DNA from: a virus
Lineage: Duplodnaviria; Caudoviricetes
DNA: 53,301 nucleotides
Virus record (IMG/VR): IMGVR_UViG_3300032297_000671
Coordinates: 1-53,301 of that record
Direction: 5' to 3' (one strand)
This document shows positions 2,906 through 39,646 of this stretch, one piece after another. The translations under genes were made by a program, and so were the position numbers. Under the pieces are notes generated by a model. It worked only from the letters and a program-made list of their open reading frames with translations. It did no database searches and was not told where the DNA came from. Within the stretch, counting starts at the first letter, position 1; the number at the start of each line of letters is the position of its first letter.

Positions 2906-5518
2906 ATGGATTTACTAAATCAATTGAAAACTCTAAGAGATAATACTAATTCTCCTGAAGTGAGAACACTGTGTGAATCTCACATAAAAAACATCCAAGA
3001 AGGAACTGTTACTTTGAATGAATCTGAAATTATTGAATCGGTTAACGAGGCAAATAATTCTGCTTCGAATGAAGTAAATCCAATGGAAATGCTAAGAAAG
3101 CAAGAACTTGAAAAATCTAAATCAATGGCTTCTAGACTTATGGAGTCTTGGGGTGGTTTAGGATCTTCTTTTTCTAAAACTTCTGGTTCTTACGTTGACG
3201 GAAAAACTGAGGAGAAAAAAGACTTAGCTTCTAATATTTCTGAGAGCCTATCTCAATTTGCTGATAATGATCCTGCAGCTAAAGCATTTGTTCAGTCACA
3301 AGGAGTTAATAACTTAGGAGTTTATGAATCTATACTTTCTATAAAAGGACAAGGAATATATGAGCATCCTAATGTTAAGGTTCTTTGTGAGAAATACACA
3401 CACCTTATTAAGTCTCAAAATTTACCAGAGTTTCTTGTAGCTGAATCGTTTGCTTCAGAAATACAAAACTTTACATGGGACAATAAAGTAAAATCCATTT
3501 ACGAAAAAATTTCAGAGAGCTTAAATTCTCTTAAACCTGAGATTGAGGTTTCTAAAGCTTTATATTCGATCGAAAGAAATGCTGGATCTGATTTCTATTC
3601 TCCTGTTACAGAGTCATTGAACAAATGGCTAGTTTCTGAGAATAAATCGGTTGCTTTGTTATCAAAAGAATTGTCTAGATGGTCTTTCAATCCAGCTGTA
3701 AGAAATCTTGTTAATAGTCTTTCATTAATGGAAAGCTCTAATGAAAAATTAAGCATTCCTGTTAATAGTGGAAATTCTTCAGTAAGTAGATTATTCTCTC
3801 CAGTTTTAGTTGGTAGCGGTAAAACAACATTTACTATCGGAAGTAACGTTTTTGAAGGTAATGCAGAAGGTATCAGAAAGTTATCTAACAAGGAGATTTC
3901 AGAATTACCTAAAAACTTTATGAGCTTATTGGAGTCTTTCTATTCTCCGATGGTTAAGGTTAACGAGAGCGGTATCTCATACTTTATTGGCGATAAAGCT
4001 TACAAATTGGTAGGGGAAAACGATTCAGTTAACATTTACTCAAAGGGTAATAAAATTAAATTCGCTGATAATACACAATTGGCAAAACAGATCGCTCTTG
4101 AGATTTCTGGAACTTTTGGTATTAACGAATCAAAAGCAATTTCTGATTTGATCAACATCTACGAAAATTTTGATCAAATCGTAGAATTGGACTTTGCAAA
4201 AAGATTAGATTCTAAGGTTTATGAGGGAGCATCAGTTAATCTTATTAAATGGGAGAATAAGCTCTATTTGAACAAGATCAATTCTGCAATGAATGAGAAT
4301 TCTTTGTACGTTGTAAACGGAACTCAGGCTTCTTCTATGATTAAGGAGTTTTTAAAGTATGACATATCAGAAGGTCTTACCGAGTTTTTAGACGGAGAAA
4401 ATAGAATCAAATCTATCATGATTAACGATAGAGCTCAGATTATTGAAAACATCACTATCGTGGAAAAAGAGATTCAGAAAATCGAAGCTACGATGTCTCA
4501 AAATCCTGTATTTACTAACTCTAAAGAATTACAAAGAGCTAAATCTCTCTTAGAGCAGGAGCTTAATACATTGAGACAAAAATGGTCTGCTGTTAACGAA
4601 GAAATTGAGAAAATCGATTCAGGAGTTTCAGAAGTTCAAAATGTTAACGAGGATGAAAAATTTAATGTTGGAGACTACATTAAAGTTAAAGAGTCTGGAA
4701 ACACAGGAAAAATTATTTCTGTAGATTCTACTTCAGGATCATACACTGTATTGATGGATAATGGCAAAACAGGCGATTATAGAGTAGATGAAATCGTTGA
4801 TATCGAAGAAGCTTTAGCTGATGCAGGTAAAGAGAACGACGAAAAAAGCAAACCACAGGAAGATGAGGAGGAAATAAAGGAGAATGAAATGGCTTCTGCT
4901 CCAACAAAAGCCACTGCCGGTTCTAAAGATATGACTCCTGCTGCTACTATGAAAGCAAATACAACTGCTGCTCCATCTTCGAAAGAGCAAGAAGTTACTA
5001 GCAAAAAAGATGTAGAAAATCTAGATCACGCTAACCTTGAAGAAGCACCTGAGGGTAAAGAAAAAGAAACTAAGTTCGAGGTTAAATTGAAAGATTCGTT
5101 AGTTGATAAGATTGGATACAATGTTAATGAATCAGATCTTGAAAAAACAAATCCTGAACTTGCTGAAGCACCAGGAGGAAAAAGCGATGCTGATTATAAA
5201 GTAGAGATTTCTATCCCTAAAGCTAATAACCCAGAAGCTAGTGATAAAGATCAAGATTTAGCTGATGCACCTGAATCTGGTGTATCTAAGGTAAAGGCTA
5301 ATACAGATCAGAATTTAGCTACCGCTCCAGGTGGAGAATCTGAAGCTGATTATAAAGTTGAAGTTACTATTCCTAAGGCAAATAAGCCAGAAGCTAATGA
5401 TGAAGATCAAAACTTAGCTGATGCACCTGCAGCTGGAACTGAAGCTCAGACTAACGTTGAGGTTAATTCTGAAATGGGATATAACATTGACGAGAGCGAA
5501 GAGTCAAAAAAAAACTAA
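2906..5518 (+). CDS. large putative head/core protein with coiled coil, KOW/SH3-like domain and acidic C-terminal repeats; probable -1 frameshift extension to 5691
   Basis: Many [LIV]xE(S) sites (LNES, VNEA, ISES, VNES, INES) and a KOW/SH3-like segment FNVGDYIKVKESGNTGKIISVD. The ORF ends in A AAA AAC TAA. Confidence 0.7.
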   Translation: MDLLNQLKTLRDNTNSPEVRTLCESHIKNIQEGTVTLNESEIIESVNEANNSASNEVNPMEMLRKQELEKSKSMASRLMESWGGLGSSFSKTSGSYVDGKTEEKKDLASNISESLSQFADNDPAAKAFVQSQGVNNLGVYESILSIKGQGIYEHPNVKVLCEKYTHLIKSQNLPEFLVAESFASEIQNFTWDNKVKSIYEKISESLNSLKPEIEVSKALYSIERNAGSDFYSPVTESLNKWLVSENKSVALLSKELSRWSFNPAVRNLVNSLSLMESSNEKLSIPVNSGNSSVSRLFSPVLVGSGKTTFTIGSNVFEGNAEGIRKLSNKEISELPKNFMSLLESFYSPMVKVNESGISYFIGDKAYKLVGENDSVNIYSKGNKIKFADNTQLAKQIALEISGTFGINESKAISDLINIYENFDQIVELDFAKRLDSKVYEGASVNLIKWENKLYLNKINSAMNENSLYVVNGTQASSMIKEFLKYDISEGLTEFLDGENRIKSIMINDRAQIIENITIVEKEIQKIEATMSQNPVFTNSKELQRAKSLLEQELNTLRQKWSAVNEEIEKIDSGVSEVQNVNEDEKFNVGDYIKVKESGNTGKIISVDSTSGSYTVLMDNGKTGDYRVDEIVDIEEALADAGKENDEKSKPQEDEEEIKENEMASAPTKATAGSKDMTPAATMKANTTAAPSSKEQEVTSKKDVENLDHANLEEAPEGKEKETKFEVKLKDSLVDKIGYNVNESDLEKTNPELAEAPGGKSDADYKVEISIPKANNPEASDKDQDLADAPESGVSKVKANTDQNLATAPGGESEADYKVEVTIPKANKPEANDEDQNLADAPAAGTEAQTNVEVNSEMGYNIDESEESKKN
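5159..5440 (+). repeat. intragenic direct repeat, 156-bp (52-aa) period, 2 copies
   Basis: LAEAPGGKSDADYKVEISIPKANNPEASDKDQDLADAP versus LATAPGGESEADYKVEVTIPKANKPEANDEDQNLADAP. Confidence 0.85.
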
Positions 5519-5752: not shown

Positions 5753-6112
5753 ATGGCAAAAGAATATGTTAGAAATGCGGATTTAATGGCCGCTATCCTT
5801 GAATGTAAGGAAAAGGGCGAATTAACTCCGCGTACTATAAAGATGTTCACGCTTATGATAAACGGAATCTCTAAAAAAATGGCTTATAGAGATCCTGAAG
5901 ATAAGGAAGATTGCATGGCTTTTGCTATGGAGGACTTAGTAAAATATTGGAATAGATTTGATCCAACAAAATCTAATAACCCATTCTCGTACTATACACA
6001 AATTGCAAAGAATGGATTTGCGAAAGGATGGAAAAAAATACATCCACCAAAAGCACCAAAAACAATACCTTTTTCTTACATCACTGGTGAGGATAATTCG
6101 TACAACGTTTAA
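5753..6112 (+). CDS. gp55: T4 gp55-like sigma factor for late transcription
   Basis: YVRN..L and RFDPTKSNNPFSYYTQIAKNGF resemble the gp55 family signature (NFDP.KS.NPFAYFTQI); it sits next to head genes. Confidence 0.85.
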   Translation: MAKEYVRNADLMAAILECKEKGELTPRTIKMFTLMINGISKKMAYRDPEDKEDCMAFAMEDLVKYWNRFDPTKSNNPFSYYTQIAKNGFAKGWKKIHPPKAPKTIPFSYITGEDNSYNV

Positions 6113-6114
6113 GT

Positions 6115-6600
6115 ATGACAGATATCAAGAAAATAAAACCCAATGGGGATTATAAATCTGGACTCTATGTACCAAAAAACCCTGAAAAGTATATTGGTGA
6201 CGTCCATAATATAATTTGTAGATCCTCGTGGGAATTTAGATTCTGTAGATATTGTGATTCGAACGAGAGAATACTCAAATGGAGTTCAGAACCTTTAAAA
6301 ATTCCTTATTATAATCCGCTCGATAAGAAGGAGCATGTTTATAACGTTGATTTTTATATACAGGTTTTACAGGATGATGATAATAAGCAAGACTGGATAA
6401 TAGAGATAAAACCAGAATCACAATTTAAAAGACCCATCCTGGAAGGTAATGCTACTTTACAAAAGCTAAAATCATACAACCATAAAATGCAAGTCTGGAT
6501 TACTAACCAGGCAAAATTCAAATATGCTAAAGAATGGGCATCTGCGAGAGGATACAAATTTGGTGTGGTTGATGAAAATTTTCTATTTAAAAGCAAGTGA
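6115..6600 (+). CDS. gp4: head completion nuclease (T4 gp4-like, TnsA-type fold)
   Basis: Motifs PKNPEKYIGD, RSSWE, WSSE, IPY, H.Y.VDF, IEIKP and N.AK...A..W. Confidence 0.88.
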   Translation: MTDIKKIKPNGDYKSGLYVPKNPEKYIGDVHNIICRSSWEFRFCRYCDSNERILKWSSEPLKIPYYNPLDKKEHVYNVDFYIQVLQDDDNKQDWIIEIKPESQFKRPILEGNATLQKLKSYNHKMQVWITNQAKFKYAKEWASARGYKFGVVDENFLFKSK

Positions 6601-7199
6601 AAAACTTTGCTGAGCAAATAAAGGATTATCAGAACGGAGCTCAATCAATTAGTTCCCTGATACAGAAAACAAATTCTCTTTTTGAAGAAAAATATTTTTC
6701 ACCAAACGGAAAGGGTGAACCTTTAAGTGGTAATTATATACCAGGAAAAATATACACTGGAGAATATCTAACCAAGACAGATCTTTCCGATCGTATTAAA
6801 TTCATAGACAGAAGACCTGTATTTCTTTTTATTTCTGAGGAGAAAGTTAATGGTGAAAATATATTAAAAGGTCTTGATCTTAATATAGTTCCTAATGAAT
6901 ATAGAGCTAAAATTTTGGGATCCTATTTTGATAATTTTATAGGTAAGATTTCAGCGAATTTAAAAAATCCACCATCTTTACAGGAGCCTATATTGATAAA
7001 ATCGGTTTACCTTTCGTCCATCTTTGGTAATGATGGATATAAATTTGCTATGAATGGATTTAAAAAATCATATATGAAGTCTGTTAAAATCATATCTTAT
7101 GATGATTGGTCTAAAATACCTTTCTTAACAGATACACAAATACAAGGACTGACTGTTTCGGCGATATATAATCAATATAAGACGAAATTAAATGCTTGA
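6597..7199 (+). CDS. gp2: DNA end protector protein (T4 gp2-like)
   Basis: IPGKIY..Y, DRRP and GLDLNIVP...R resemble gp2 motifs (PG.MY.F.Y, D.FP, GLNLHYLP...R); adjacent to gp4. Confidence 0.6.
   Translation: MKNFAEQIKDYQNGAQSISSLIQKTNSLFEEKYFSPNGKGEPLSGNYIPGKIYTGEYLTKTDLSDRIKFIDRRPVFLFISEEKVNGENILKGLDLNIVPNEYRAKILGSYFDNFIGKISANLKNPPSLQEPILIKSVYLSSIFGNDGYKFAMNGFKKSYMKSVKIISYDDWSKIPFLTDTQIQGLTVSAIYNQYKTKLNA
7163..7170 (+). promoter_or_regulatory. putative late promoter for the portal genes
   Basis: GATATATA at the 3' end of the gp2-like gene, 63 nt before the portal ATG. Confidence 0.55.
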
Positions 7200-7233: not shown

Positions 7234-8862
7234 ATGGCAGGATTCACAGATAACCCACAAGGAAATCCCATATTTCAAAGAATTAAGGATTCAGTAAAAT
7301 CCCTGAGTAATTTTGGATTAAGGTACGGTGATATGGTCATTAGGAACTCCCAGGCTATCGGTCAGACCGAAGCTGAGTTCATGAAGAAAGGTCCTATCGA
7401 AGATGATACAATGTTGTATTCACTAGGTAGACAAGATACAACAACAAAGCAATTTATTGGTTATTTTGATAAGGATTACGCAGGTAAGAGAGATTACCTT
7501 AGAAAGTTTTCACTAAATCCTGAAATCGAATATATTCTGGATACTGTTTGTGACGAGTCCATAACTTACGATTCCTATAATTTTTTTGCATACCCAGCTT
7601 TTCTTAATCTAACCAATATAAAAGAAAAGGTTATAAATAGAATTGACTCAAACTACAAGAAATTGTATGATATGTTTGGGTTTAGCGACGATAGCACTGC
7701 TTGGCAATATTTCAGGCAGCTTCTTGTTGACGGATTTATCGCATTTGAGATTATTTACGATGACAAGGGTAAAAATATCATAGGATTTAAAGAACTTGAT
7801 GCAACGACATTAATGCCATCTGTAGAAAAACAGAAGGATGGATCTTTTCTTAATGTTTGGTATCAATATCCTAAGGACATTAATAAGAAGAGAATGCTCT
7901 ATGATTCTCAGATAGTCTATATCTCATATGCTAAGGGAAATACAGTTTCCAGGGTTTCTTATGCTGAAAGATTGATTAGACCTTATAACATATTAAGAAT
8001 CATAGAGTATACCCGTGTTATATGGTCGGTAATGAACGCTTCATTCAGGATGAAGATGACAGTTCCTATCGGATCAAGATCACCTCAGAAGTCAATGCAA
8101 ACCTTAGGTGAATTGATGAGTATCTATAAAGAGGATATAAGATTTAATGACGATAGTGGAGAACTTACTGTAGACGGTAGACCGAAAATACAGTTCTACA
8201 AAAATTATCTTATGCCTTCAGGTGTAAATGGTACACCAACTATCGAGCCTTTAAACACTGCGGGTCCTAATCTTAATGATCCCGCTCCATTAGCATATTT
8301 CTTTGACAAATTAGCACAGGAATCAAAAATTCCTTTTTCTAGATTCCAAGGACCGGATGGAGGATCTATAGGTCAATATTCAAATTCTGCAGAAGGACTT
8401 GACAAGGAAGAAATCAGATTTGCAAAATTTGTAACGAGATTGAGATCTATATTTCAGGATATCCTTGTTAAGCCACTATGGATCCAGATGTGTAAGGATT
8501 TTCCGGAGCTTGAAAAGGATTATCTTTTTAAAAGTCAACTTGGATTAACTTTTGTTTCTGATAACCCATTTAGGGTAAATCAAGAAATAGAGACCATGAC
8601 AAAAAAGAAAGAGTCTATTGATAGTCTTTATGGGTTAACTGATGAAGATGGTAAGCCATTCTTTTCTTTAGCTTATCTTATAGAGAGCTATTTGGGTATG
8701 ACTGCTGATGATATTAAGGCTAATGAGGAGGCAAAGAAAAAAAGAAAAGAAGAATTAAAGAAGGAAGGTAAAAGTGAAGAAGCTGCTGCACCTGCTGAGG
8801 GATCTGCAGAACCTGCGGAACCTGCAGAAACACCCGAAACAGAAACACCTCCAGCTGAATAA
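7234..8862 (+). CDS. gp20: portal protein, paralog A (T4 gp20-like)
   Basis: PEIE..LD.VCDESI, FRQLLVDG, SYAERLIRPYNILRIIE...VIW, SKIPFSR and EEIRFAKFV.RLR..F are gp20 family motifs. Confidence 0.88.
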   Translation: MAGFTDNPQGNPIFQRIKDSVKSLSNFGLRYGDMVIRNSQAIGQTEAEFMKKGPIEDDTMLYSLGRQDTTTKQFIGYFDKDYAGKRDYLRKFSLNPEIEYILDTVCDESITYDSYNFFAYPAFLNLTNIKEKVINRIDSNYKKLYDMFGFSDDSTAWQYFRQLLVDGFIAFEIIYDDKGKNIIGFKELDATTLMPSVEKQKDGSFLNVWYQYPKDINKKRMLYDSQIVYISYAKGNTVSRVSYAERLIRPYNILRIIEYTRVIWSVMNASFRMKMTVPIGSRSPQKSMQTLGELMSIYKEDIRFNDDSGELTVDGRPKIQFYKNYLMPSGVNGTPTIEPLNTAGPNLNDPAPLAYFFDKLAQESKIPFSRFQGPDGGSIGQYSNSAEGLDKEEIRFAKFVTRLRSIFQDILVKPLWIQMCKDFPELEKDYLFKSQLGLTFVSDNPFRVNQEIETMTKKKESIDSLYGLTDEDGKPFFSLAYLIESYLGMTADDIKANEEAKKKRKEELKKEGKSEEAAAPAEGSAEPAEPAETPETETPPAE

Positions 8863-8873
8863 AATAAAACGAT

Positions 8874-10478
8874 ATGGCCGGATTTCTAGATAACGTAGCG
8901 GAAAGAACATTCTTAGGTAACCTGTACAAAAACCTATCCAGAATAGGTAAGTTTGGTATGGAGTACCAAGATATGGTTATTAAAAATTCACAGGCAATTG
9001 GTTCGACAGAATCTAATTTTTTTAATGAGCAAGGGAGCGGATTTACTGAGAATGATGCTTTTAGATGGACTCTTGGATATCAAGATACCCAAATTAGAAA
9101 ATACATTGCTTATTTTGATAAGGATTATGTAGGTAAGAGGGATTTTCTTCGAAAATTTTCCTTGAATGGTGAGATTGATTTTATTCTTGATACAATTACC
9201 GATGATTCTGTAAATTACGATGATAAGAATTTCTTTTCTTATCCATCACTAGCAAACATAGATCTTAAGAATAATGTTGTAGATAAGTTGGACGAAACGT
9301 ACAGGAATCTCTATATGCTTTTCGGTTTCCAGCAGAGTATTCTTGCCTGGCAATATTTTAGACAATTCCTGATAGACGGTTTTCTTGCATTTGAGATTGT
9401 ATATTCTACCGATGGTAAAAAAATTGTAGGTTTTAAAGAGCTCGATGCTACTTCACTTCAGCCAGCAACAGAAAAACAACCTAACGGTGAATTCCAGCAA
9501 ATTTGGATTCAATACCCGAATGATAATAAGATGACCAGAAGGTTAAAAGCTGAACAGATTATTTATATTTCTTATGCTAAGGGTAACACAGTCTCTAGAG
9601 TTAGCTATGTAGAAAGATTAATAAGATCATACAATATCCTACGTATAATGGAAAATACTAGGGTTATTTGGAATGTTATGAATGCCTCTTATCGTTTGAA
9701 ATTTGTCATCCCTGTTGGTAGTCAATCACAGCAGAAAGCAATGCAAACCCTTGGGCAGTTAATGTCTATCTACAAGGAGGAAATAGATCTGAATGATTTT
9801 TCCGGAGAATTAACAGTAAACGGTAGACCAAAGGTTCAATTTTATAAGAATTATTTGTTTCCTGAGAAAGATGGACAATCTCCAGATATTTCGACCCTGG
9901 ATCCTAATGGTCCGGATTTTAATGTGATGGAGAACGTTGTTTATTTCTATAATAAACTTAAACTAGATTCAAAAATACCTTATGCTAGATTTGCTTTTAG
10001 AGGGGGTACACCAGCAAATTATCAGATAGCCATAGATCAGCTTGAAAGGGATGAAATAAGATATGAGAAATTCTTAACTAGACTTAGATCAATCTTCCAA
10101 GAAATACTCGTTAAACCTCTTTATATTCAGATGTGTTTGGATTTTCCTGAATTATCAAAGGATAGATCATTTAAGGCTAATTTAGGTCTGGATTTTGTAA
10201 GAGAGAATTTGTTTGAAGAATTAATACAGCTTCAGAATTATACCAAGAGAAGCGATTTTATTACTGCTCTTGGAGGAATGAACCAGAAAATAGGAGAAGC
10301 TGAAACCCCTTACTTTGATAAAGAATTTCTAATAAAAAGATTCCTTGGTATTACTATGGATGAGTTTAGGAAGAATGAAAAGTATAAGGAAAACGAAGCT
10401 AAGGAAGCTAAAAAGGCTGAAAAAGAAGGTGGTGCTACTGAAGAAGGTGGCGGTGGTGGAGAAAGCTTTACTCTTTAA
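8874..10478 (+). CDS. gp20: portal protein, paralog B (T4 gp20-like)
   Basis: Colinear with paralog A throughout: YFDKDY.GKRD.LRKFSLN, FRQFLIDG, YISYAKGNTVSRVSY.ERLIR, SKIPYAR and DEIRYEKF..RLR. Confidence 0.88.
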   Translation: MAGFLDNVAERTFLGNLYKNLSRIGKFGMEYQDMVIKNSQAIGSTESNFFNEQGSGFTENDAFRWTLGYQDTQIRKYIAYFDKDYVGKRDFLRKFSLNGEIDFILDTITDDSVNYDDKNFFSYPSLANIDLKNNVVDKLDETYRNLYMLFGFQQSILAWQYFRQFLIDGFLAFEIVYSTDGKKIVGFKELDATSLQPATEKQPNGEFQQIWIQYPNDNKMTRRLKAEQIIYISYAKGNTVSRVSYVERLIRSYNILRIMENTRVIWNVMNASYRLKFVIPVGSQSQQKAMQTLGQLMSIYKEEIDLNDFSGELTVNGRPKVQFYKNYLFPEKDGQSPDISTLDPNGPDFNVMENVVYFYNKLKLDSKIPYARFAFRGGTPANYQIAIDQLERDEIRYEKFLTRLRSIFQEILVKPLYIQMCLDFPELSKDRSFKANLGLDFVRENLFEELIQLQNYTKRSDFITALGGMNQKIGEAETPYFDKEFLIKRFLGITMDEFRKNEKYKENEAKEAKKAEKEGGATEEGGGGGESFTL

Positions 10479-10490
10479 AACTAATATTCT

Positions 10491-11453
10491 TTGGATCTAG
10501 CCAATCTTATTTCAAAGAAAAGAATTCTCGTAGTAGGAGATTCTATACTCGACGAATACATTTACGGGAAAGTATACAGGATATCACCAGAAGCTCCAGT
10601 TCCTGTTGTGCTGAAATCTAATAGATCTTATTGTTTAGGTGGTGCCTCAAATGTAGCACAGAATATTATCTCTATGGGAGCTAGTTGTGATCTAATATCG
10701 ATTATAGGAAAAGATCATGCTGGTGATAAATTGTCATCCCTTTGTAAAGATATCGGAATAAATCTAATAGGATTAGATGACGGAAGATCAACTACTGTTA
10801 AATCTAGGGTTATTGGAAATGGCCATCAGATAGTAAGAATCGATGAGGAATCAACTTTTCCTATATCAGAGCATATTGAAAATTGTTTAATTGAGCTTGT
10901 GAATTCTGCTTCACATCTTGTAGATGGAGTTATCATACAGGATTACGGAAAGGGGTTGGTAACAAAAAGAGTTGTTGATCATATCAACTCGTTATTTTCT
11001 AAAAAATTAGTACCAGTTCTAGTCGATCCTAAGGATAATGATATTTCAAAATATTCGGGATCACACATAATAAAGCCAAATCTTTCTGAATTCAAGAATT
11101 TTTTAGGCGTAGATCAAAATATCAAGTTATCTGGGAATGATATAAAAAATAGAGCCATGGATCTAATGCTCAATAACAGCGTAGGATCGCTTTTAATAAC
11201 ACTTTCAGAAAAAGGTATGGTTTATGTTAAAGATGATCTTTTTGTTACCGACAGGGGTGTAAAAATCGATATAACTGATGTTTCTGGTGCGGGTGATACT
11301 GTTAGTGCAGTCTTTATGCTATTTTACCTTGCAGGAATGCCTATCAGTGATTGCTTAAGAGCCTCAAATCTAGCTGGATCACAAGTTTGTAAGATTTCCG
11401 GGGCAGTTCCAGTTAATCTAAATTTGCTTATAGCAGACTTTAATGCCGGATAA
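10491..11453 (+). CDS. rfaE: PfkB-family kinase, D-glycero-D-manno-heptose-7-phosphate kinase (RfaE/HldE domain I-like)
   Basis: Motifs VVGD.ILDEY..G...RISPEAPVPV, GGASNVA.N, DYGKG, VDPK, KPN..E and DVSGAGDT. Confidence 0.88.
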   Translation: MDLANLISKKRILVVGDSILDEYIYGKVYRISPEAPVPVVLKSNRSYCLGGASNVAQNIISMGASCDLISIIGKDHAGDKLSSLCKDIGINLIGLDDGRSTTVKSRVIGNGHQIVRIDEESTFPISEHIENCLIELVNSASHLVDGVIIQDYGKGLVTKRVVDHINSLFSKKLVPVLVDPKDNDISKYSGSHIIKPNLSEFKNFLGVDQNIKLSGNDIKNRAMDLMLNNSVGSLLITLSEKGMVYVKDDLFVTDRGVKIDITDVSGAGDTVSAVFMLFYLAGMPISDCLRASNLAGSQVCKISGAVPVNLNLLIADFNAG

Positions 11454-13847: not shown

Positions 13848-14192
13848 ATGAATAAGAATTTTATAGTTTTTTTGATTATAATAGCATTGTCCCAAGCTGG
13901 ATCGTGGATTCAGCAATTTGCTTTTATAAAATGGGACTGGTTTAAAAATAACATGATACTCTCTACTGTAATATTCGGTAGTTTGATATCTATTGGGTTC
14001 GTAATGGGAGCTAGAGTTGGATATGATATATGGGGAAATACTTGGAGTATTAGGTTAGTTCAGTTTTCAATTGGTATATTTGTTCTTACATTATGTTCTT
14101 GGTTATTTTTAGGTGAATCTATAGACTTGAAGAATGGAATATCACTTTCGCTTGCTTTTGCTATAGTTCTGTTACAGGTATTTTGGAAATGA
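13848..14192 (+). CDS. small 4-TM membrane protein (SMR/DMT-like size and topology)
   Basis: 114 aa with four hydrophobic helices and a WLFLGE motif before the last helix. Confidence 0.6.
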   Translation: MNKNFIVFLIIIALSQAGSWIQQFAFIKWDWFKNNMILSTVIFGSLISIGFVMGARVGYDIWGNTWSIRLVQFSIGIFVLTLCSWLFLGESIDLKNGISLSLAFAIVLLQVFWK

Positions 14193-14713
14193 TGAAAAGA
14201 ATAATTATAGTAGGTAAAGGTGGATCAGGTAAGGATCACCTTAGAAAAGAATTAGAAAAGTTAGGATTTAGATATTGTATCTCACATACAACACGTCCTC
14301 CTAGAGATGGTGAAATTAATGGTGTTGATTATCACTTTATATCTAGAGAATCAGCTGCATTTGAATTTGCTGCAAAGGGTAAATTCTACGAATATGTCAT
14401 ATTCAATGAATGGCTATACGGAACATCAGTTGAAGAATTCGAAAAAAGCAATCTCTTTATAATGACACCTTCGGGTCTTTCTAAAATGAAAGAATCAGAT
14501 AGAAAAGAATCGATTGTGATCTACCTTGATATAGATGAGAATGTGAGGAGGGATAGAATTTCTAAAAGAAATGATGCTGATAAAATAGAGAGAAGACTGG
14601 AGGCAGACAAGAATGATTTCTTGTCATTCACTGACTTTGATTATGTTATAACGGATCCTTTTTTCTCAGTAGGCGATCCGATTTTTGATTTAAATAGATA
14701 CACTCATGATTAA
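14189..14713 (+). CDS. gmk: guanylate kinase-like protein
   Basis: P-loop GKGGSGKD, SHTTRPPRDGEINGVDYHF and YGT. The ATGA overlap supports the start at 14189. Confidence 0.85.
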   Translation: MMKRIIIVGKGGSGKDHLRKELEKLGFRYCISHTTRPPRDGEINGVDYHFISRESAAFEFAAKGKFYEYVIFNEWLYGTSVEEFEKSNLFIMTPSGLSKMKESDRKESIVIYLDIDENVRRDRISKRNDADKIERRLEADKNDFLSFTDFDYVITDPFFSVGDPIFDLNRYTHD

Positions 14714-15839
14714 CGTTTTAATAGACGGAAACTATATTTTCCACAAAACTTTTGGTGTTTTTGGTGGATATGGATCTAAAGATCCTGGAGAGATCCTAAA
14801 AACTGCGGGAGAGCAGTCAATGTTTATAAGAAAAATAACTACAGATCTTTGCTCTGCTTTAAGGTCTCTTCCTATTGGAGGAAGATTAATTTTTACTGTT
14901 GATAGCAGAAGTTGGAGGAAGGATGTTGAAATTGAAGGTGGAGGATATAAATCAAATAGGGTTAAAGACGAGAATGTTGATTGGAGCGTATTTTTCGATT
15001 TATTGCAAGCTTACGGTGAGCATTTAGAAAACATGGGATTTGTGTTTTCTAAAGTTGATGGTGCAGAGGGTGATGATCTTCTTTATTTTTGGTCAGATTA
15101 TTTCAATACGAAGGGAGAGGATTGTATAATAATATCTGGTGATAAAGACATGTACCAGCTTGCTAGATGGAAGGGACCAAATTGGACTGTTGTTTGGAAT
15201 AGTAATTCTAAGAATAATATTCTTTCTGTTCCTCAATCTTGGGAATCTGATTGGTTGAACAAATCGGGGGAGGCAACTATTTTTAACATATCAGAATCGA
15301 TGGATCCTGACAAGGATAGATTTAAAGATTTCGTTAAAAAGATAGACGTCCAGGAAATAAATCCAAGGGATTTTGTTTTTGTTAAGATGTTGATAGGTGA
15401 TAAAGGAGATGCCGTTCCCGGTATTTGGGAAATGAAGGTCGGGGAAAAAACAAATAATTTAACTCCAAAAAAAGCTGAAAATATCCTTGCATCTCTACAA
15501 GAATCTAAATGGAAAGATTCAGAATTCAAAGATTTGATATCTGATTCTGAATTTTTAGATTGGATATCAGGAATGACCCTTAGAATAATGAAGGATGTTG
15601 ATAGCCAAGAAAACAGAGAGAAGGTTTCTTCCAATCTGCTGAGAAATTATAAGTTAATGTGGCTTGATAAGTATGTCATACCAAGGGAAGTTATAGAAAA
15701 GACTATATTGGAATTAAAAAGAGGAATATCTTTGCCTAGAAAATCTATAACACTTGATAGAGTAAAAATCCTTGACGGAACTAACTGGATTGTAACTCAG
15801 TCAGCACCTAAAAGCTTTGACCCATTTAACAACTTCTGA
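14706..15839 (+). CDS. rnh: 5'-3' exonuclease / T4 RNase H (FEN-like)
   Basis: Motifs LIDGN, D..SWRK, YK.NR, EGDD, ISGDKD..QL and GDKGD.VP. Confidence 0.88.
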   Translation: MINVLIDGNYIFHKTFGVFGGYGSKDPGEILKTAGEQSMFIRKITTDLCSALRSLPIGGRLIFTVDSRSWRKDVEIEGGGYKSNRVKDENVDWSVFFDLLQAYGEHLENMGFVFSKVDGAEGDDLLYFWSDYFNTKGEDCIIISGDKDMYQLARWKGPNWTVVWNSNSKNNILSVPQSWESDWLNKSGEATIFNISESMDPDKDRFKDFVKKIDVQEINPRDFVFVKMLIGDKGDAVPGIWEMKVGEKTNNLTPKKAENILASLQESKWKDSEFKDLISDSEFLDWISGMTLRIMKDVDSQENREKVSSNLLRNYKLMWLDKYVIPREVIEKTILELKRGISLPRKSITLDRVKILDGTNWIVTQSAPKSFDPFNNF

Positions 15840-23383: not shown

Positions 23384-25396
23384 ATGGGAAATAATCCAAA
23401 TTCATTGAACGAGAATCTATTCTTTATATTAGAAAAGCAAAATGACAATCTTGCCGTTTCTAAAGTAGATTCCGATTCAGGTAAAGAATACATTCTTCAG
23501 GGAATAGCTGCTCAGTTTGGCAAGGAAAACAATAACAATAGAATCTATGAGGAAGGTGAATATCTTCCGCATCTTGACTATTTAAAGGACAAGATCAAAC
23601 AAAAAAGACTCCTAGGAGAATTGGATCACCCAGAAAAGTTTGATGTTTCTTTAAAAAATATTTCTCACGTTATCGACGATTTAGAATACGATAAAGACGG
23701 GAGAGTTCTTAAGATCAAGGTAAAATTGTTAGATACACCTGCTGGTCAGATAGCTAAAAAATTAGTTGATGCTGGAATTCCTTTAAGTATTAGTTCTAGA
23801 GCCGCTGGTCAAGTTGGACCAGATAAAAAGGTTCAAATCAAGAAGATTTTTACGTATGATTTAGTTGCTGATCCTGGTTTTCAAGATGCTCAGCTAGAGA
23901 GAGTTTATGAGTCTGCAGACTTTGTTACGTTCGTTGATCACCAAAAAAATTCAATAATAAACAGTCTTGAATGCGTAAATGAATCATTTGGATTAGAAAA
24001 TGAAAATTCATTGAAGATATATAAAGTTGAAAATAACGAGGAATTCGAAAAACTCTTTAAGTCAGAAGAAAAAAATAAATCCGCTACTATGGAGCAAAAA
24101 GAATATGTGACTGCTGATGAACTCAATAAATATTCTATCTTTTTAAAGAAGAAAATGGATGAGCTTGAGGCACAAATAAATGAAATGAAAAACGATGCTT
24201 CAGTATCTGAAGCTTCAACTGTTACAACTACTGACACTTCTGCTTTAGAAGAAAGGGTAGCTAAGCTTGAGAAATATTCAGAGTATCTTGCTGAAAATCT
24301 AGACGGTGCAATTAAATATGGTGAATATCTTGCTGAGAATCTAGACAACAGCATCACTTACTCTAAGTATCTTGCTGAAAATCTTGATAAGAACATCTCT
24401 TATGCTAAGTATCTAGCTGAGAATGTTGATAAGTCTATTTCATATTCAGAGTATGTTGCTGAGAATGTTGATAAGGCTATCGACTATTCTAAATATTTAG
24501 CTGAGAAAGTTGATGATGGTATTCAATACACAGAATATGTTGCTGAGAACCTTGATAAAAATATCGCTTATTCTGAGTATCTTGCAGAAAACCTAGATAA
24601 AGGTATCGCTTATTCTGAGTATCTTGCAGAAAACCTAGATAAAGGTATTGCTTATTCAGAATACATCGCAGAAAAATTAGATCAAGGAATTCACTTCACT
24701 GAATACCTTGCTGAAAACGTAAACAAGTCGGTATCTTATTCTGAATACATCGCAGAAAACTTAAATAAGGGTATCGCTTATTCAGACTATCTAGCTGAAA
24801 AGCTAAATGGTAACATCGCAGAAACTGAGTCTATCTCAGAGAGCGTAAAAAATGGTAAATCTGTTAACTTGAACGAAAGTGCAAGAGAAAATGCAGAAAT
24901 TATCGCTAACACAGAATTGGTAGAGTCTGGTTTTGCTGGAGATTATAATTCAATCTCAGGCAAAATTGACGCTCTAATTGAATCAGTCAAGACGCAAAAG
25001 ACTGAGGAGAATATAAACGAGGCAAGAACGAAAGTTCAGCCAACTGCTCAAACACAAAAAGCAGATGAGGCATTGAATGAAGGAATTGAATCTAATGTTA
25101 AGTCATCAGGTTACAAGTTTATCGATCAGATGCCAGAGGAATATGCTCAGGTTTGGGAATCCTTAAATGAAAACCATAAGCAATCTATTGTTGCTCAGGC
25201 TTCTTTCTACAATTTGGAAACTCAATATCAGATCAATAACTTCTGGTCTACTAGACAACTTGATACAAAAACAATTGGACTTCAAAAACTTCAAGAAAGC
25301 CAAGAAACACCAGAACCAACAAAAGAAAGCTTATCACCTGCATATTCTAACGACTATGTACAGTGGGTAGCTAAGTCTCTTGAAGGTAAGTTTTAA
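23384..25396 (+). CDS. gp21: prohead protease (T4 gp21-like) fused to scaffold/core domain
   Basis: N.NNRIY, LGELDHP, SHVI, LLDTPAG, ISSRAAG and YDLVADPGF..A, followed by a long coiled-coil/repeat C-terminal region. Confidence 0.9.
   Translation: MGNNPNSLNENLFFILEKQNDNLAVSKVDSDSGKEYILQGIAAQFGKENNNNRIYEEGEYLPHLDYLKDKIKQKRLLGELDHPEKFDVSLKNISHVIDDLEYDKDGRVLKIKVKLLDTPAGQIAKKLVDAGIPLSISSRAAGQVGPDKKVQIKKIFTYDLVADPGFQDAQLERVYESADFVTFVDHQKNSIINSLECVNESFGLENENSLKIYKVENNEEFEKLFKSEEKNKSATMEQKEYVTADELNKYSIFLKKKMDELEAQINEMKNDASVSEASTVTTTDTSALEERVAKLEKYSEYLAENLDGAIKYGEYLAENLDNSITYSKYLAENLDKNISYAKYLAENVDKSISYSEYVAENVDKAIDYSKYLAEKVDDGIQYTEYVAENLDKNIAYSEYLAENLDKGIAYSEYLAENLDKGIAYSEYIAEKLDQGIHFTEYLAENVNKSVSYSEYIAENLNKGIAYSDYLAEKLNGNIAETESISESVKNGKSVNLNESARENAEIIANTELVESGFAGDYNSISGKIDALIESVKTQKTEENINEARTKVQPTAQTQKADEALNEGIESNVKSSGYKFIDQMPEEYAQVWESLNENHKQSIVAQASFYNLETQYQINNFWSTRQLDTKTIGLQKLQESQETPEPTKESLSPAYSNDYVQWVAKSLEGKF
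24089..25396 (+). CDS. putative nested in-frame scaffold protein (435 aa, MEQKEYVT...)
   Basis: Internal GATATATA at 24016-24023 and an A-rich leader AAAAAAATAAATCCGCTACT precede an in-frame ATG at the protease/scaffold boundary. Confidence 0.5.
   Translation: MEQKEYVTADELNKYSIFLKKKMDELEAQINEMKNDASVSEASTVTTTDTSALEERVAKLEKYSEYLAENLDGAIKYGEYLAENLDNSITYSKYLAENLDKNISYAKYLAENVDKSISYSEYVAENVDKAIDYSKYLAEKVDDGIQYTEYVAENLDKNIAYSEYLAENLDKGIAYSEYLAENLDKGIAYSEYIAEKLDQGIHFTEYLAENVNKSVSYSEYIAENLNKGIAYSDYLAEKLNGNIAETESISESVKNGKSVNLNESARENAEIIANTELVESGFAGDYNSISGKIDALIESVKTQKTEENINEARTKVQPTAQTQKADEALNEGIESNVKSSGYKFIDQMPEEYAQVWESLNENHKQSIVAQASFYNLETQYQINNFWSTRQLDTKTIGLQKLQESQETPEPTKESLSPAYSNDYVQWVAKSLEGKF
24272..24817 (+). 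repeat. 13 tandem 42-bp (14-aa) repeats, consensus YSEYLAENLDKGIA
   Basis: Directly visible in both the protein and the DNA. Confidence 0.95.
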
Positions 25397-25419: not shown

Positions 25420-27114
25420 ATGAAACTAATTAACGAAGCAGAAATCTTCGAAACCTGGTCTCCTATCATCGAGCAGAAGGCTGGAATCGCAGATACTGAA
25501 AAGAAACAGTGGCTTTCTAAATATTGTCACTACCACTCATTGAACGAATCAGCTGGTGCTTATTCTTCTTTGAACGTTGTTAACGGTATGGGTGCAGTTA
25601 CACCTCCTACCTTCCCAACTAACACCAACGCTAACGCTGGTTTTTATAACTCATCTTGGCAAGGATCTGGCGATAAATTCCCTTCACTTCTTCCATTGGC
25701 TATTCAGGTAGCTGCGAAGACTGTAGGTTTTGACATCGTTCCAGTTATCCCTATGTCAGGTCCTACTGGCGTATTGTCATACCTTGACTACGTTTACGCT
25801 GGTGGTAAAATCAGCCCAACTTCTGTTGGTGACACAGCTGCTGATGCTTTAGCTGCTGCTCCTGCAATGATCAAATTGCAAATCACTTCACTTGCTTCAG
25901 GATATCCTGCATCATTTGCGGTTGGTACTACTTACTACATCACTAACGCTTCTTCAGCTGGTGCATACATCACTACTAAATTCGTAGGTCTATCAAGAAT
26001 TGATGGTTACCCTATCTTTAGAGTAGAAGGTGTTACTGCTGGTGAGTCTATCGCAGCTGTTATCGACGGTGGTGCTACTAAAGTTGGTACTTCAATCAAC
26101 GGATCTCAAGCTGGTACTACTACTGCTTCTGCAGCATTAGTTAAAGCTTTAGAAGACCACATCCAAGGTTTCTCTGGTGCTGGTTTCCAAAACAGCGATA
26201 ACTGGCAAGGTCCATTCGTTGACGGTACTAAAACTTACAACCCAATGCTTAGAGCATACGGTGAGAGTAACTACTACCAGTCAATGGGTCTTTCGACTTT
26301 CACTAAGTTCGTTGAGGCTGACACTTTCCAAGTAGCTGCTTCTGTAACTACGGAGCAAATCCAAGACCTTAACAAACAATTCGGTATCGACGTTATCTCA
26401 ATGATCGAGAACGCATTGGTTAATGAGGTTTCACAAGCTATCAACAAGCACATCCTTTCTAGAGGATTCGCTCTTGGATGGTCTAACCACTACGACTTCT
26501 ACACTACAGAAGGACAAAACTTGAACCTTAACCTTGTAATTGGTGGTACTGCAGGTTCATACACTATCCCTTCATACGTAGGTAAAGATGACACTGGTTT
26601 AACTCTTGCTGGAACTGCTGGTCCTGCAACAGGAACTTACGAGAACTTGTCAACTCTTCAGAGAAGATTATTCTCAAGAATTCTTGCTGCTGCTAACGTA
26701 GTTGCTAACAGAGGTAGAAGAGGTCCTGCTAACTTCATCGTTACTAACGCTAACGTTGCAAGTGCATTGCAAGATATCTCTCAGTTCACTTTCGCTCCTT
26801 TCTCTAACACGTTGACTCAGAACAACGGTACATTATACCCTGTAGGTTCACTTGCTGGTATGACTGTTTACGTTGATCAGAACATGACGTTCTCTGATAC
26901 GAGAGTATTGGTAGGTAGAAAAGGTGGTGATGACGAACCAGGACTTAAGTTCATGCCTTACATGATGGCTGAGTCTATTCAGACAATCTCTGAAGGTACT
27001 ATGTCACCTAAGATCGCAGTTAAATCTCGTTACGCTTTAGTAGAAGCTGGTTTCCACCCAGAAACTATGTATTTCTGCTTCAACGTTAACTTGCCTGCTG
27101 GAGGTATCTCCTAA
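25420..27114 (+). CDS. gp23: major capsid protein (T4 gp23-like, HK97 fold)
   Basis: LPLA..VAAKTVGFDIVPV.PMSGPTG, EQIQDL....GID, RGRRGPANFIV, G.LAG.TVYVD, FMPY and P..AVKSRYAL. Codon usage is strongly biased, as expected for a highly expressed gene. Confidence 0.93.
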   Translation: MKLINEAEIFETWSPIIEQKAGIADTEKKQWLSKYCHYHSLNESAGAYSSLNVVNGMGAVTPPTFPTNTNANAGFYNSSWQGSGDKFPSLLPLAIQVAAKTVGFDIVPVIPMSGPTGVLSYLDYVYAGGKISPTSVGDTAADALAAAPAMIKLQITSLASGYPASFAVGTTYYITNASSAGAYITTKFVGLSRIDGYPIFRVEGVTAGESIAAVIDGGATKVGTSINGSQAGTTTASAALVKALEDHIQGFSGAGFQNSDNWQGPFVDGTKTYNPMLRAYGESNYYQSMGLSTFTKFVEADTFQVAASVTTEQIQDLNKQFGIDVISMIENALVNEVSQAINKHILSRGFALGWSNHYDFYTTEGQNLNLNLVIGGTAGSYTIPSYVGKDDTGLTLAGTAGPATGTYENLSTLQRRLFSRILAAANVVANRGRRGPANFIVTNANVASALQDISQFTFAPFSNTLTQNNGTLYPVGSLAGMTVYVDQNMTFSDTRVLVGRKGGDDEPGLKFMPYMMAESIQTISEGTMSPKIAVKSRYALVEAGFHPETMYFCFNVNLPAGGIS

Positions 27115-32844: not shown

Positions 32845-33331
32845 GTTTGCTTCAATCTCAGATTTACCTATATTTAAATTTGAATTTGTCGATTGGTTCA
32901 AAAATTTAGAATTAGTAGATTCCCAAGAATCTACCCATTTATTTGCATTAGGAAAAGAGTCTATGCTAATGCAATTGAATAGAGATGGTCTTTTACCTGA
33001 TTTCATTCTCGATAGAGGTATTTTAACAGTTATGACCTGGGGAATACTTTCAGGAAGAATAACTGAATCCAAGGCACATGAGCAACTTTCCATGATTTGT
33101 GAAGCAGGTCTTTTCGATAACATTAGGATATTCTATGTGGTTGGTGAAAATCCAGACCGGTCTAGTAGGAATAAGGATGTTTGGGACTTTAGAGAATCCG
33201 ATAATAGAGAATCTGAGATCATGGAAAATCTAAGAGATCATATTTCTAATAATCCATATAACGTGCAGGTTGAGTACATTTTTAATGAATTCAACGAAGA
33301 TTCTGTACGATCTCTACATAAATTTATATAA
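32789..33331 (+). CDS. P-loop nucleoside monophosphate kinase (thymidylate kinase-like)
   Basis: IFEGQRNSGKT P-loop and ILDRG motif. Confidence 0.7.
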   Translation: MITIFEGQRNSGKTFLAHKFASISDLPIFKFEFVDWFKNLELVDSQESTHLFALGKESMLMQLNRDGLLPDFILDRGILTVMTWGILSGRITESKAHEQLSMICEAGLFDNIRIFYVVGENPDRSSRNKDVWDFRESDNRESEIMENLRDHISNNPYNVQVEYIFNEFNEDSVRSLHKFI

Positions 33332-33332
33332 A

Positions 33333-34730
33333 ATGTGCGGTATACTAATAACTAAAGAAATCTCGGACAGAGTAATCGATTCGATTAAACATAGAGGAAT
33401 TGAAAAAACAATTGTTAGTAAGGGATTGTTTAATCTTTGTCATCACAGACTTCCTATCCAAACCTCAGATGGCGATGATTGGAACCAGCCAAAGGAGATA
33501 AGTCCTGGGATCTTCCTCTTGTTCAATGGAGAGATATTTAATTACGATAGAAATAGGTATTCATCAGACATCGAGTATCTCTGTAGTTTATTTTCTAACT
33601 ATCGTGGTGGAAACTTCGATTTATTTTGTGCTTTCTATCTTTCTCAGATACAAACATGGGATGGATTTTGGGCTATAGTTTTATATGATGCTAATCTTAA
33701 TGAGGCTATTGCTTTTACAGATCCTTTAGGAAAGAAGTCTTTGTATTTCAATAATATTGGTGAGATCTGTTCTGAGATAAAGGGAGTAGTTAGTGATAAT
33801 TCCCCGATTGATGAAATCTTTATGAGCTCAGTTAGAAAATGGGGATATAATACAGACGAGAGAACTCCATATACGGATGTCAAGAGAATTTTACCAAATG
33901 ACATCTACCATTTGAATCTAGATAACGTAGAAATTAGAAAGATCTATAAAGAATATTACAAGGGATTCGATTCCCCAATAACTGAATTAATAGGTGCTTC
34001 CTACGAGGATCACATGGAGTGGTTATGGAGCAAAATGTTTGAGTCAGTTAAGAATAGACTTGTATCAAAAAACTACCCAATTTCTTTGCTAATTTCTGGT
34101 GGACTTGATTCCTCTATCATAGCTTCTATATTAAAAGAAATTGGTGCTGACGTCAGGTGGTTTAGTATAGAGAATGGTGAAAGGGAATATGTTGAATTGC
34201 TTTCTGAGTACTTATCAACTAACGTAACATTCCTTGACTATTCGATGGAGGATGATAAGAATGACGAGATATACAAAAAATGGAACGAGTCCCCAATTGA
34301 TCTCGGATCAGCTATTCCTCAGTATTACTTATTTGAAGCTATTAAAAAATTCGGAGGATATCGTATAGTTTTAAGTGGTGATGGATCTGACGAACTCTTT
34401 GGAGGATACAGAAGGATCCACGAATACGATTCACAGAAATCTGATATCTTCGAGGAGCTTTCTTATTATCACTTGCCTAGACTTGATAAGATGTCAATGG
34501 CACATACTTTAGAATTGAGAAGCCCATTCCTTAATCTTGATCTTGTTAGATTTGCTCTACATTTACCTAAGGAATGGAGAACAGATAAAAAAATTCTAAA
34601 GGACACCTTTGCACCGATATTACCCGAGGAAATAGTCAATAGAAAAAAAGAAGCTCTAAAGAATCCTCAGATAAAAGAAGATAAAATAAAGTATCGATAT
34701 AAGGTAATTGACAGATTTATTAAGCAGTAG
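33333..34730 (+). CDS. asnB: asparagine synthetase (glutamine-hydrolysing)-like amidotransferase
   Basis: The true start is MCGI at 33333 (Ntn cysteine). Other motifs: HRG, HHRL.I, FNGEIFNY, SGGLDSS, LSGDGSDELFGGY and DKMSMAHTLELRSPFL. Confidence 0.88.
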   Translation: MCGILITKEISDRVIDSIKHRGIEKTIVSKGLFNLCHHRLPIQTSDGDDWNQPKEISPGIFLLFNGEIFNYDRNRYSSDIEYLCSLFSNYRGGNFDLFCAFYLSQIQTWDGFWAIVLYDANLNEAIAFTDPLGKKSLYFNNIGEICSEIKGVVSDNSPIDEIFMSSVRKWGYNTDERTPYTDVKRILPNDIYHLNLDNVEIRKIYKEYYKGFDSPITELIGASYEDHMEWLWSKMFESVKNRLVSKNYPISLLISGGLDSSIIASILKEIGADVRWFSIENGEREYVELLSEYLSTNVTFLDYSMEDDKNDEIYKKWNESPIDLGSAIPQYYLFEAIKKFGGYRIVLSGDGSDELFGGYRRIHEYDSQKSDIFEELSYYHLPRLDKMSMAHTLELRSPFLNLDLVRFALHLPKEWRTDKKILKDTFAPILPEEIVNRKKEALKNPQIKEDKIKYRYKVIDRFIKQ

Positions 34731-38995: not shown

Positions 38996-39646
38996 ATGGA
39001 ATGGCTGAAAAAGATTTTTTCAAAGAAGAAAAAAATGGACTTTAAAGATAAAACACTGCCTGAGCTTCAGGAAGAACTCTCACAATTTGACTTTACTTGG
39101 ATTAAAGGCGATCAGATGGGAAATATTGAAAGATATGACGATGTCGTATCTGACGAAACCACAGGCATGACATTCGTTTGCTTTAAAAGTGGAGGAAGAA
39201 TTAACATAGAACTACTTAGTGAATATCTAGATCCATTCCCAGCTACTAAAGTAAACTATGGAAATGTTACAGAATCTGCTCCAATCCAAGCCCCTCAACT
39301 AGATCGAATCCATCAAGATTCCCCGCAGAAGTCTCAGCGATCAGGAAGCAATCAGGTTTCTTCTGTTGAGGTTGAGGATTCCCCGATATATACATTGCTT
39401 AAAAAACAGAAGACAAATTGGGTTAATGTAAACATAAGCCTGAAGTTGAATCTACCTTCTAAGAGTCTTTATGGTATCCTAATAAATTCTTTTGATGAAG
39501 CAGAAAGCGAAATTATAGACTATGTAACAGAGGGTATTGACATAGAAGATATTAGAAACGCTCTTGGAGATTCTATTTCTGCTTATTATGATAAGAAAAA
39601 GTCCTCCAGTGTAGTAAGTGAAAAAAACAATTCCGAAGATGAATAA
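38996..39646 (+). CDS. hypothetical protein
   Basis: 216-aa ORF with an amphipathic N-terminus MEWLKKIFSKKKK. An alternative start is MDFKDK. Confidence 0.7.
   Translation: MEWLKKIFSKKKKMDFKDKTLPELQEELSQFDFTWIKGDQMGNIERYDDVVSDETTGMTFVCFKSGGRINIELLSEYLDPFPATKVNYGNVTESAPIQAPQLDRIHQDSPQKSQRSGSNQVSSVEVEDSPIYTLLKKQKTNWVNVNISLKLNLPSKSLYGILINSFDEAESEIIDYVTEGIDIEDIRNALGDSISAYYDKKKSSSVVSEKNNSEDE

Follow-up and report, generated by a model that had tools for sequence, protein, structure and literature searches.

The Two Portal Genes

The DNA analyzed in this work, referred to below as the window, is a stretch of 53,301 nucleotides (53.3 kb) from an uncultured tailed phage (Caudoviricetes; IMG/VR record IMGVR_UViG_3300032297_000671), and this fragment belongs to a virus record which CheckV estimates to be 18% complete. 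It contains two adjacent open reading frames (ORFs), named here A and B, both of which match the portal protein family of phage T4 gp20. A reading of the letters without database searches (the sequence-only reading) had described them as intact, colinear portal paralogs with diverged DNA and had proposed either a heteromeric portal or two specialized portals, such as separate packaging and ejection vertices. The pair is arranged as follows:

7234..8862, + strand: portal paralog A of the T4 gp20 type, 542 amino acids (aa), assigned by PF07230, PHROG 213 and AlphaFold2/Foldseek
8863..8873, + strand: A-rich 11-nt spacer from the stop codon of A to the start codon of B, read from the sequence
8874..10478, + strand: portal paralog B of the T4 gp20 type, 534 aa, assigned by PF07230, PHROG 213 and AlphaFold2/Foldseek

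The description of the two genes proved accurate. Both ORFs are intact and start with ATG, and BLASTP aligned their products colinearly from residue 1 to approximately residue 500 with 269/505 identities (53%), 8 gap positions and E = 0.0. The three peptide blocks which had been singled out are present in both proteins (residues 77-95, 229-249 and 309-326 of A; 80-98, 231-251 and 311-328 of B), while the DNA has indeed diverged, to 59.3% nucleotide identity over the aligned codons. When the 51 ORFs of the window were compared all-against-all, A and B were the sole strong paralog pair.

Both products match Pfam PF07230 (Portal_T4; curated cut-off 22.9 bits) over nearly the whole of its 433 positions, A with E 2.3e-60 and 205 bits (model positions 7-432, i.e., 426 positions) and B with E 7.8e-59 and 200 bits (positions 9-432, i.e., 424 positions). 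Both also match the portal protein profile PHROG 213 (E 1.4e-56 for A and 1.2e-56 for B) and, by sequence (E ~5e-10) and predicted fold, T4 gp20 itself (PDB 3JA7, 6UZC, 9MKB, 9LU6/9LU7), although identity to T4 gp20 is only ~17-20% in structural alignments. The AlphaFold2 models, of moderate mean confidence (predicted local distance difference test, pLDDT, 71.1 for A from a 55-row alignment and 73.7 for B from a 54-row alignment) and with clip and tunnel loops of low confidence, have helices and strands in identical order, and each contains a wing, two stem helices, a clip, a tunnel loop and a crown, the domain order that A and B have in common with T4 gp20. The best PDB matches of both models in Foldseek were T4 gp20 chains (E 3e-19 for A and 2.8e-21 for B; TM score 0.5-0.66), followed by other phage portals. 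By sequence, predicted fold and gene context both A and B are thus members of the T4 gp20 portal family, whose hallmark is a dodecameric ring that sits at one capsid vertex and conducts DNA. Rather than one portal gene per genome, two full-length PF07230 genes are present in the window as well as in the records G001-G004.

Distribution and Retention of the Pair

A search of IMG/VR with A as query, from which 80 loci were kept, showed A followed by B in 78; the remaining two (L034 and L058) stop at or within A and are uninformative. In a second clade, reached via the representative P0001, the pair was present in all 80 loci, with an identity of 55-59% between the first copy and A and of 52-59% between the second copy and B. 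A metagenome scan seeded with the nearest outgroup proteins gave 82 loci (L174-L175 included), of which 42 carried the pair, among them a third clade ~70% identical to A and B. In a further 17 loci, all of the outgroup type, a single portal gene is flanked by 1.8 kb or more on either side; 22 others had a single portal gene but a short flank, and one was a fragment. The sole single gene of the in-clade type (L243) has a downstream flank of just 135 bp. Across the three clades A orthologs are 55-89% and B orthologs 52-89% identical to those of the window. After removal of identical sequences there were 122 distinct pairs (51, 13, and 58 by clade) and 39 distinct single-copy relatives; distinct pairs were counted instead of loci because some contigs are common to both collections. 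The absence of one paralog from relatives, which the sequence-only reading had named among the findings that would count against its proposal, was not observed: among the three clades examined, no locus with enough flank to be informative lacks either copy. In locus L052 (7650-9145) the B-type match is split into two overlapping pieces in different frames; this is the only disrupted copy (1/78 loci), and the frameshift-like break may be a sequencing error.

Outside the three clades, a single portal gene is the rule. Among GenBank phages, A has 1077 matching places in 1075 records; a second place occurs only in LR756501 and in its twin record and is a fragment of 101 aa; T4 and the other matching phages thus have one full-length portal copy, in contrast to the two diverged tandem copies described here. 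In LR756501.1, from a 735-kb uncultured phage, this 101-aa ORF (15166-15351; L087) lies 57 kb from the full portal gene, and its match to the portal profile (22.4 bits) is confined to the C-terminal end of that profile. No cultured phage of the GenBank set is closer than 46%. The single-copy portals of huge phages (P0002/P0003-like loci, LR756500 and the Lak phages) are ~35-52% identical to A and B, and one portal gene was found in all 17 well-flanked loci, in LR756500 (462 kb) and in 4/4 whole bins holding more distant contigs of 254-607 kb, whereas the bin holding an 86% ortholog has two portal matches. A protein search with B returned thousands of protein clusters, and among the 120 best listed the portal family bore no source name besides “hypothetical protein.”

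A Single Ancient Duplication

In a tree of 92 rows the A and B orthologs formed reciprocally monophyletic sister clades. A second tree of 67 rows, which covers all three clades together with the single-copy relatives, supported the A clade, the B clade, and the two combined with values of 99, 96, and 99, respectively, in the Shimodaira-Hasegawa-like approximate likelihood ratio test (SH-aLRT); both are quick LG+G4 trees without bootstraps. In the 67-row tree every single-copy sequence lies outside A+B and the stem branches of the two copies are alike (0.17 and 0.14). The A and B subtrees mirror each other, with the branching ((c1,c2),c3) of the clades in both. Forcing A and B of clade 3 together, a group named for the approximately unbiased (AU) test after the tree had been seen, cost 141.7 log-likelihood units (p-AU 0.0003); a separate duplication in clade 3 was thereby rejected, and independent duplications in different clades were discarded. 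In the 30 tblastn loci listed, the single-copy relatives show the gene order sig55-gp4-orf200-portal that is also found around A and B. The sister relation of A and B, the mirrored branching of their subtrees, and the position outside them of single-copy relatives with the same gene order indicate a single origin of the pair, in situ, that predates the separation of the three clades; the copies have co-diverged since with no detected loss. The phylogeny, which had been suggested as a check on the pair, thus identifies A and B as ancient sister clades kept as pairs.

Selection was analyzed from the ratio of nonsynonymous to synonymous substitution rates (dN/dS) in 53 distinct pairs of the window's own clade, i.e., in 1378 pairwise comparisons per gene, of which those with 0.05 < dS < 2 were usable. 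While dS was saturated in 1288 (A) and 1302 (B) of the comparisons, nonsynonymous distances to the window sequence were only 0.09-0.18. The median dN/dS was 0.023 for A (73 usable pairs; maximum 0.077) and 0.014 for B (56 usable pairs; maximum 0.039), and across the clades the portals diverge at approximately the pace of the flanking core genes. Neither A nor B is under relaxed selection, and the sequence-only reading had already noted that neither looks decayed; both are under strong and symmetric purifying selection, and relaxation of one copy was ruled out. Gene conversion or concerted evolution was rejected as well, from the trees and from codon identity at chance level: residues identical in A and B (Met and Trp excluded) use the same codon in 124/268 cases against 126.2 expected from codon usage. 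The conserved blocks have therefore been kept by selection on the protein and not by recent gene conversion. The longest nucleotide run common to A and B is 18 bases.

Domains and Differences Between A and B

The domain boundaries given for T4 gp20 in PMC4493910 were mapped to A via a phmmer alignment to 3JA7 and the secondary structure of the AlphaFold2 model. The elements located are the following:

8068..8133, + strand: clip tip of A (aa 279-300), by phmmer alignment to 3JA7; equivalent to T4 gp20 residues ~291-296
9714..9779, + strand: clip tip of B (aa 281-302), nearly the sequence of A
8278..8388, + strand: channel-loop Asp349 of A (8278-8280), stem helix alpha7 and tunnel loop (aa 365-385, 8326-8388)
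9924..10031, + strand: channel-loop Val351 of B (9924-9926), stem helix alpha7 and tunnel loop (aa 367-386, 9972-10031)
9999-10001, + strand: tunnel-loop Arg376 of B, Arg in all three clades

Constraint is distributed almost equally between the copies. Among 523 aligned columns, 105 hold the same residue in both copies at a conservation of at least 90% in all three clades, and the number of conserved columns is nearly the same in A (167) and B (170); conservation is confined to A in 57 columns and to B in 60, and these are spread across all domains. Just five of the 523 columns are fixed but different (Q73K, M327F, T334S, L353V, and D390E), all of them conservative. The stem, the clip beta-strands, and the second wing segment are almost free of the few fixed differences. 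The single-copy relatives have 175 columns with a conservation of 80% or more; of these, 92 were kept in both copies, 19 in A only, 27 in B only, and 37 fully in neither.

The consensus of the clip tip hardly varies between A, B, and the single-copy relatives. For T4, PMC4493910 describes the clip tip as binding the terminase and the neck, the residues around 291-296 of gp20 being those that bind the terminase gp17. A, B, and nearly all single-copy relatives have in common a conserved N-terminus, MAGF (residues 1-4), and the motif FGM.Y.DMV..NSQA.G.TEA (residues ~27-47); the corresponding region of T4 is, in the same source, disordered in the isolated portal and needed for head assembly (PMC4493910). 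By these alignments both copies keep every portal domain, namely the N-terminal motif, wing, stem, clip tip, and crown, and both C-terminal tails are acidic in all three clades.

Consistent differences were found in the two loops that would line the DNA channel. At the channel-loop position where A (A349) and 85% of the single-copy relatives have Asp, B (B351) has Val or Ile. All three clades have Arg at B376 of the tunnel loop, while A has Pro or Glu at this position and the single-copy relatives have mostly Glu; in the AlphaFold2 model of A, a helix (351-364) is followed here by a low-confidence loop (374-386). The net charge of the tunnel-loop region is, by clade, -1.2/-1.9/-3.6 in A and 0/+0.1/+0.9 in B, compared with -2.2 in the single-copy relatives, whose channel and tunnel loops are acidic like those of A and unlike those of B. 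The comparison with these relatives indicates that A keeps the ancestral acidic channel lining and that B has lost it. In total 13 columns show a charge difference in the same direction in all three clades, mostly within the N-terminal 75 residues, the loops, and the crown; at position 19, for example, A has Asp or Glu and B has Lys or Arg.

Genomic Context

With genomes of roughly 270-350 kb, the phages of the A+B clade are jumbo phages: CheckV rates a 230-kb relative as 85% complete, and related contigs reach 319-349 kb. Every gene around the portal pair is on the + strand, in the order gp55-like, gp4-like, 200-aa ORF, A, B, PfkB-family kinase, DNA ligase, and clamp loader, and genes for a prohead protease and a gp23-type capsid protein lie on the same strand 13-17 kb beyond the pair. 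The main neighbors are:

5753-6112, + strand: gp55-like late sigma factor, PHROG match, conserved upstream neighbor
6115-6600, + strand: gp4-like head-completion protein, PHROG match, conserved upstream neighbor
6597-7199, + strand: conserved 200-aa ORF (orf200), immediately preceding A, by tblastn synteny
23384-25396, + strand: prohead protease, PHROG 207
25420-27114, + strand: gp23-type major capsid gene, the only one, PF07068, E 7e-41

The profiles matched by the upstream neighbor genes are PHROG 234 and 218. With the gp4-like gene upstream and the protease and capsid genes downstream, the pair is located in a T4-like head-morphogenesis module.

Consensus scans of the spacer 8863..8873 found no promoter-like or terminator-like site, and scans of the window for sigma-70 promoters and terminators gave only background levels. 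The T4 late-promoter motif TATAAATA had nine matches in the window against 8.1 expected, none of them upstream of A or B. From their spacing of only 11 nt, A and B are probably co-transcribed.

The partners of a portal were searched for in four records of up to 230 kb. The capsid family PF07068 had one match in each of the four, including the 230-kb one, and no gp24-like vertex paralog of the capsid protein was detected among these matches. One Terminase_6N gene was found in three of the four records and none within the window, while neither Terminase_6C nor the tail-tube family PF06841 matched anything in the four. There was no sign in these records of a second capsid or packaging system that would go with a second portal. 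A 188-aa ORF with a tail-sheath PHROG match (42834-43400) has no paralog in G000 or G001.

Several other features of the window should be noted. The prohead protease has 670 aa and its profile spans residues 16-296 only; the long C-terminal extension might be a fused scaffold. An 870-aa protein (2906-5518, + strand) without PHROG or strong Pfam match has an acidic C-terminal third that contains two near-identical repeats of ~35 aa (ADYKVE..IPKAN.PEA.D.DQ.LADAP), and two adjacent ORFs (1593-2267 and 2267-2812, + strand) are weak paralogs of each other (26% identity over 154 aa, E 5e-5). Metabolic and RNA-binding genes sit among the replication and structural genes at 10491-11453, 14183-14713, 33270-34730, 39618-40214, and 50729-51895, the products listed for these five loci being a PfkB-family sugar kinase, a guanylate kinase, an asparagine-synthase-like protein, a NUDIX hydrolase, and an S1/OB-fold protein; the PfkB gene directly 3' of portal B is present in some relatives and not in others. 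No tRNA genes were found in the window. The regions upstream of the 50 gene starts of the window are A/T-rich and G-poor, and Shine-Dalgarno-like 4-mers precede just 2 of the 50 genes, compared with 20% at random positions. The contig of the 86% ortholog (L256) was assigned, by binning only, to a metagenome-assembled genome titled “uncultured Saprospirales bacterium.” The scarcity of Shine-Dalgarno motifs and this binning are hints of a Bacteroidota host.

A Mixed Portal Ring as the Favored Interpretation

The portal nucleates capsid assembly, provides the dock for the packaging motor, acts as a gate for the DNA, and connects to the tail. Co-expressed paralogs of a homomer normally cross-assemble unless their interface is insulated. 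Since paralogs cross-assemble by default and there are few fixed differences between A and B, mixing would be the default outcome for this pair. We therefore lean, with moderate confidence, toward the interpretation that A and B co-assemble into one mixed (hetero-oligomeric) portal ring. It is based on the co-location and co-retention of the genes, on the symmetry of their constraint, and on the scarcity of fixed differences that might insulate the interface; it is favored because the two proteins would be made together and because a symmetric, complementary loss of constraint fits mutual dependence. Of the alternatives offered by the sequence-only reading, the heteromeric portal is hence the best-supported explanation, with the phylogeny, the dN/dS, and the retention of both copies in its favor, and the assembly itself is a prediction.

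The proposed sequence of events would be as follows. A and B, both functional portal subunits, would be made together from one late transcript and would co-assemble in a single mixed ring at the unique vertex of the capsid. Each copy would have relaxed a different minority of the ancestrally conserved positions, and such complementary degeneration would have made the two mutually dependent. The mixed ring would line the DNA channel with two kinds of loop, the acidic ones of A and those of B with a Val/Ile channel loop and a tunnel-loop Arg, and one may speculate that pairing of A and B loops provides a tighter valve for a genome of ~270-350 kb. In T4 the tunnel loops, as described in PMC4493910, touch their neighbors, help to set the 12-mer, and hold back packaged DNA. 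A more specific version, which we put forward tentatively as possible, is an obligate heterododecamer, most simply an alternating A6B6 ring of six-fold symmetry in which the acidic loops of A and the Arg-bearing loops of B would interlock as a DNA valve. According to PMC12929587, the change from 12-fold to six-fold symmetry in T4 lies below the portal, between gp13 and gp14, and a six-fold portal would thus be a real departure.

A number of observations weigh against a mixed ring, and in particular against an ordered one. Co-assembly is a deduction from the genes. An ordered alternating ring should show fixed radical differences at the interface, yet just the five fixed and conservative differences were found, and the 13 charge-consistent sites belong mostly to the N-terminal 75 residues, the loops, and the crown. 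The contrast in loop charge is a shift of ~2 units and not one between opposite charges, the strict loop of the window being +1 in A and +3 in B. A search at E <= 1e-10 among proteins of 950-2710 aa yielded no fusion of A with B, which is weak evidence, and very few substitutions can suffice to insulate paralogous homomers. In G004 an apparent open frame of 1084 aa resolved into two distinct ORFs in the same frame, separated by a stop codon. A complex prediction for A 60-505 and B 63-508, each with its own alignment, scored 0.04 against a mark of 0.32 in a run without controls, and is evidence neither way.

The strongest competitor is that A and B form two separate homododecameric rings with different jobs, either in two capsid subpopulations, each nucleated by one of the rings, or with one ring at the vertex and the other stacked on it or used elsewhere in assembly. 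The divergence of B from both A and the single-copy relatives in two channel-lining loops could mark a different gating of DNA, the columns conserved in A only and in B only imply that each copy has constraints of its own, and the ease of insulation just mentioned would permit it. We nevertheless regard separate rings as unlikely. Both copies retain the clip tip, stem helix, N-terminal motif, and wing conservation of the single-copy proteins, so that neither looks specialized for another partner; with genes only 11 nt apart and no signal between them, the two proteins would encounter each other simultaneously in one cell; and no fixed radical difference of the kind expected at an insulated interface was found. 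The separate packaging and ejection vertices of the sequence-only reading found no support either, as only one capsid gene and one terminase gene were found and the clip tip is of identical type in both copies.

It is also conceivable, but improbable, that one copy is the virion portal and the other a helper outside the virion, such as a nucleator or chaperone-like template, a packaging regulator, or a decoy for an immune sensor. Host immune sensors that recognize portal proteins (Avs-type) are known, and the presence of either protein in virions is itself a prediction; a helper, however, would be expected to lose constraint in some domains, and both copies are constrained throughout, with similar stem branches, an equally low dN/dS, and no lineage in which either copy was lost or truncated save for the break in L052. 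That the duplicate is redundant, as a matter of dosage or a neutral leftover, or an assembly artifact is very improbable: the recurrence of 122 distinct pairs on many independent contigs contradicts an artifact, copies that are 53% identical with randomized synonymous sites are not collapsed strain variants, a redundant copy would decay or go, whereas both are strongly constrained across three deep clades, and a dosage benefit would be implausible for a virion that needs just 12 portal subunits.

Comparison With Known Systems and Implications

To our knowledge, the portal of tailed phages and herpesviruses has always been described as a homododecamer encoded by a single gene. The papers searched contained no account of a tailed phage with two portal genes or with a heteromeric portal, nor of a heteromeric herpesvirus portal. 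Heterododecamers of the poxvirus core pore are AlphaFold models of unrelated proteins, and for Alicyclobacillus phage MMB025 only “two portal-associated proteins” are listed.

Within T4 a similar case is provided by the capsid, in which gp24 is a paralog of gp23, i.e., a head structural gene was duplicated and both copies are retained and used in one particle. The two capsid proteins differ from the portal pair in that they occupy distinct lattice positions, as hexamers and pentamers, whereas the portal is a single closed ring at one vertex; gp24 pentamers are described as occupying the eleven non-portal vertices. A closer logic, by analogy only as the proteins are unrelated, may be that of hetero-oligomeric rings which arose by duplication. 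In RuvBL1/2, the proteolipid ring of the V-ATPase, the proteasome, and the chaperonins the subunit of a homomer was duplicated, the paralogs cross-assembled, and complementary loss made both indispensable. The symmetry of the columns conserved in one copy only (57 vs. 60), and of the ancestral columns kept in one copy only (19 vs. 27), fits this pattern.

The existence of a large uncultured clade that has had two portal genes since one old duplication challenges the rule of a single portal gene. The pair represents a natural experiment on how symmetric viral machines gain complexity, and it bears both on how a 12-fold ring deals with 5-fold and 6-fold partners and on how very large genomes are retained under pressure. 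If the proposal is true, an alternating ring of A and B would give the HK97-fold virus lineage its first hetero-oligomeric portal and would illustrate how, in nature, a homomeric viral ring becomes a two-gene ring; should a heteromeric ring be demonstrated, the finding would be categorically new.

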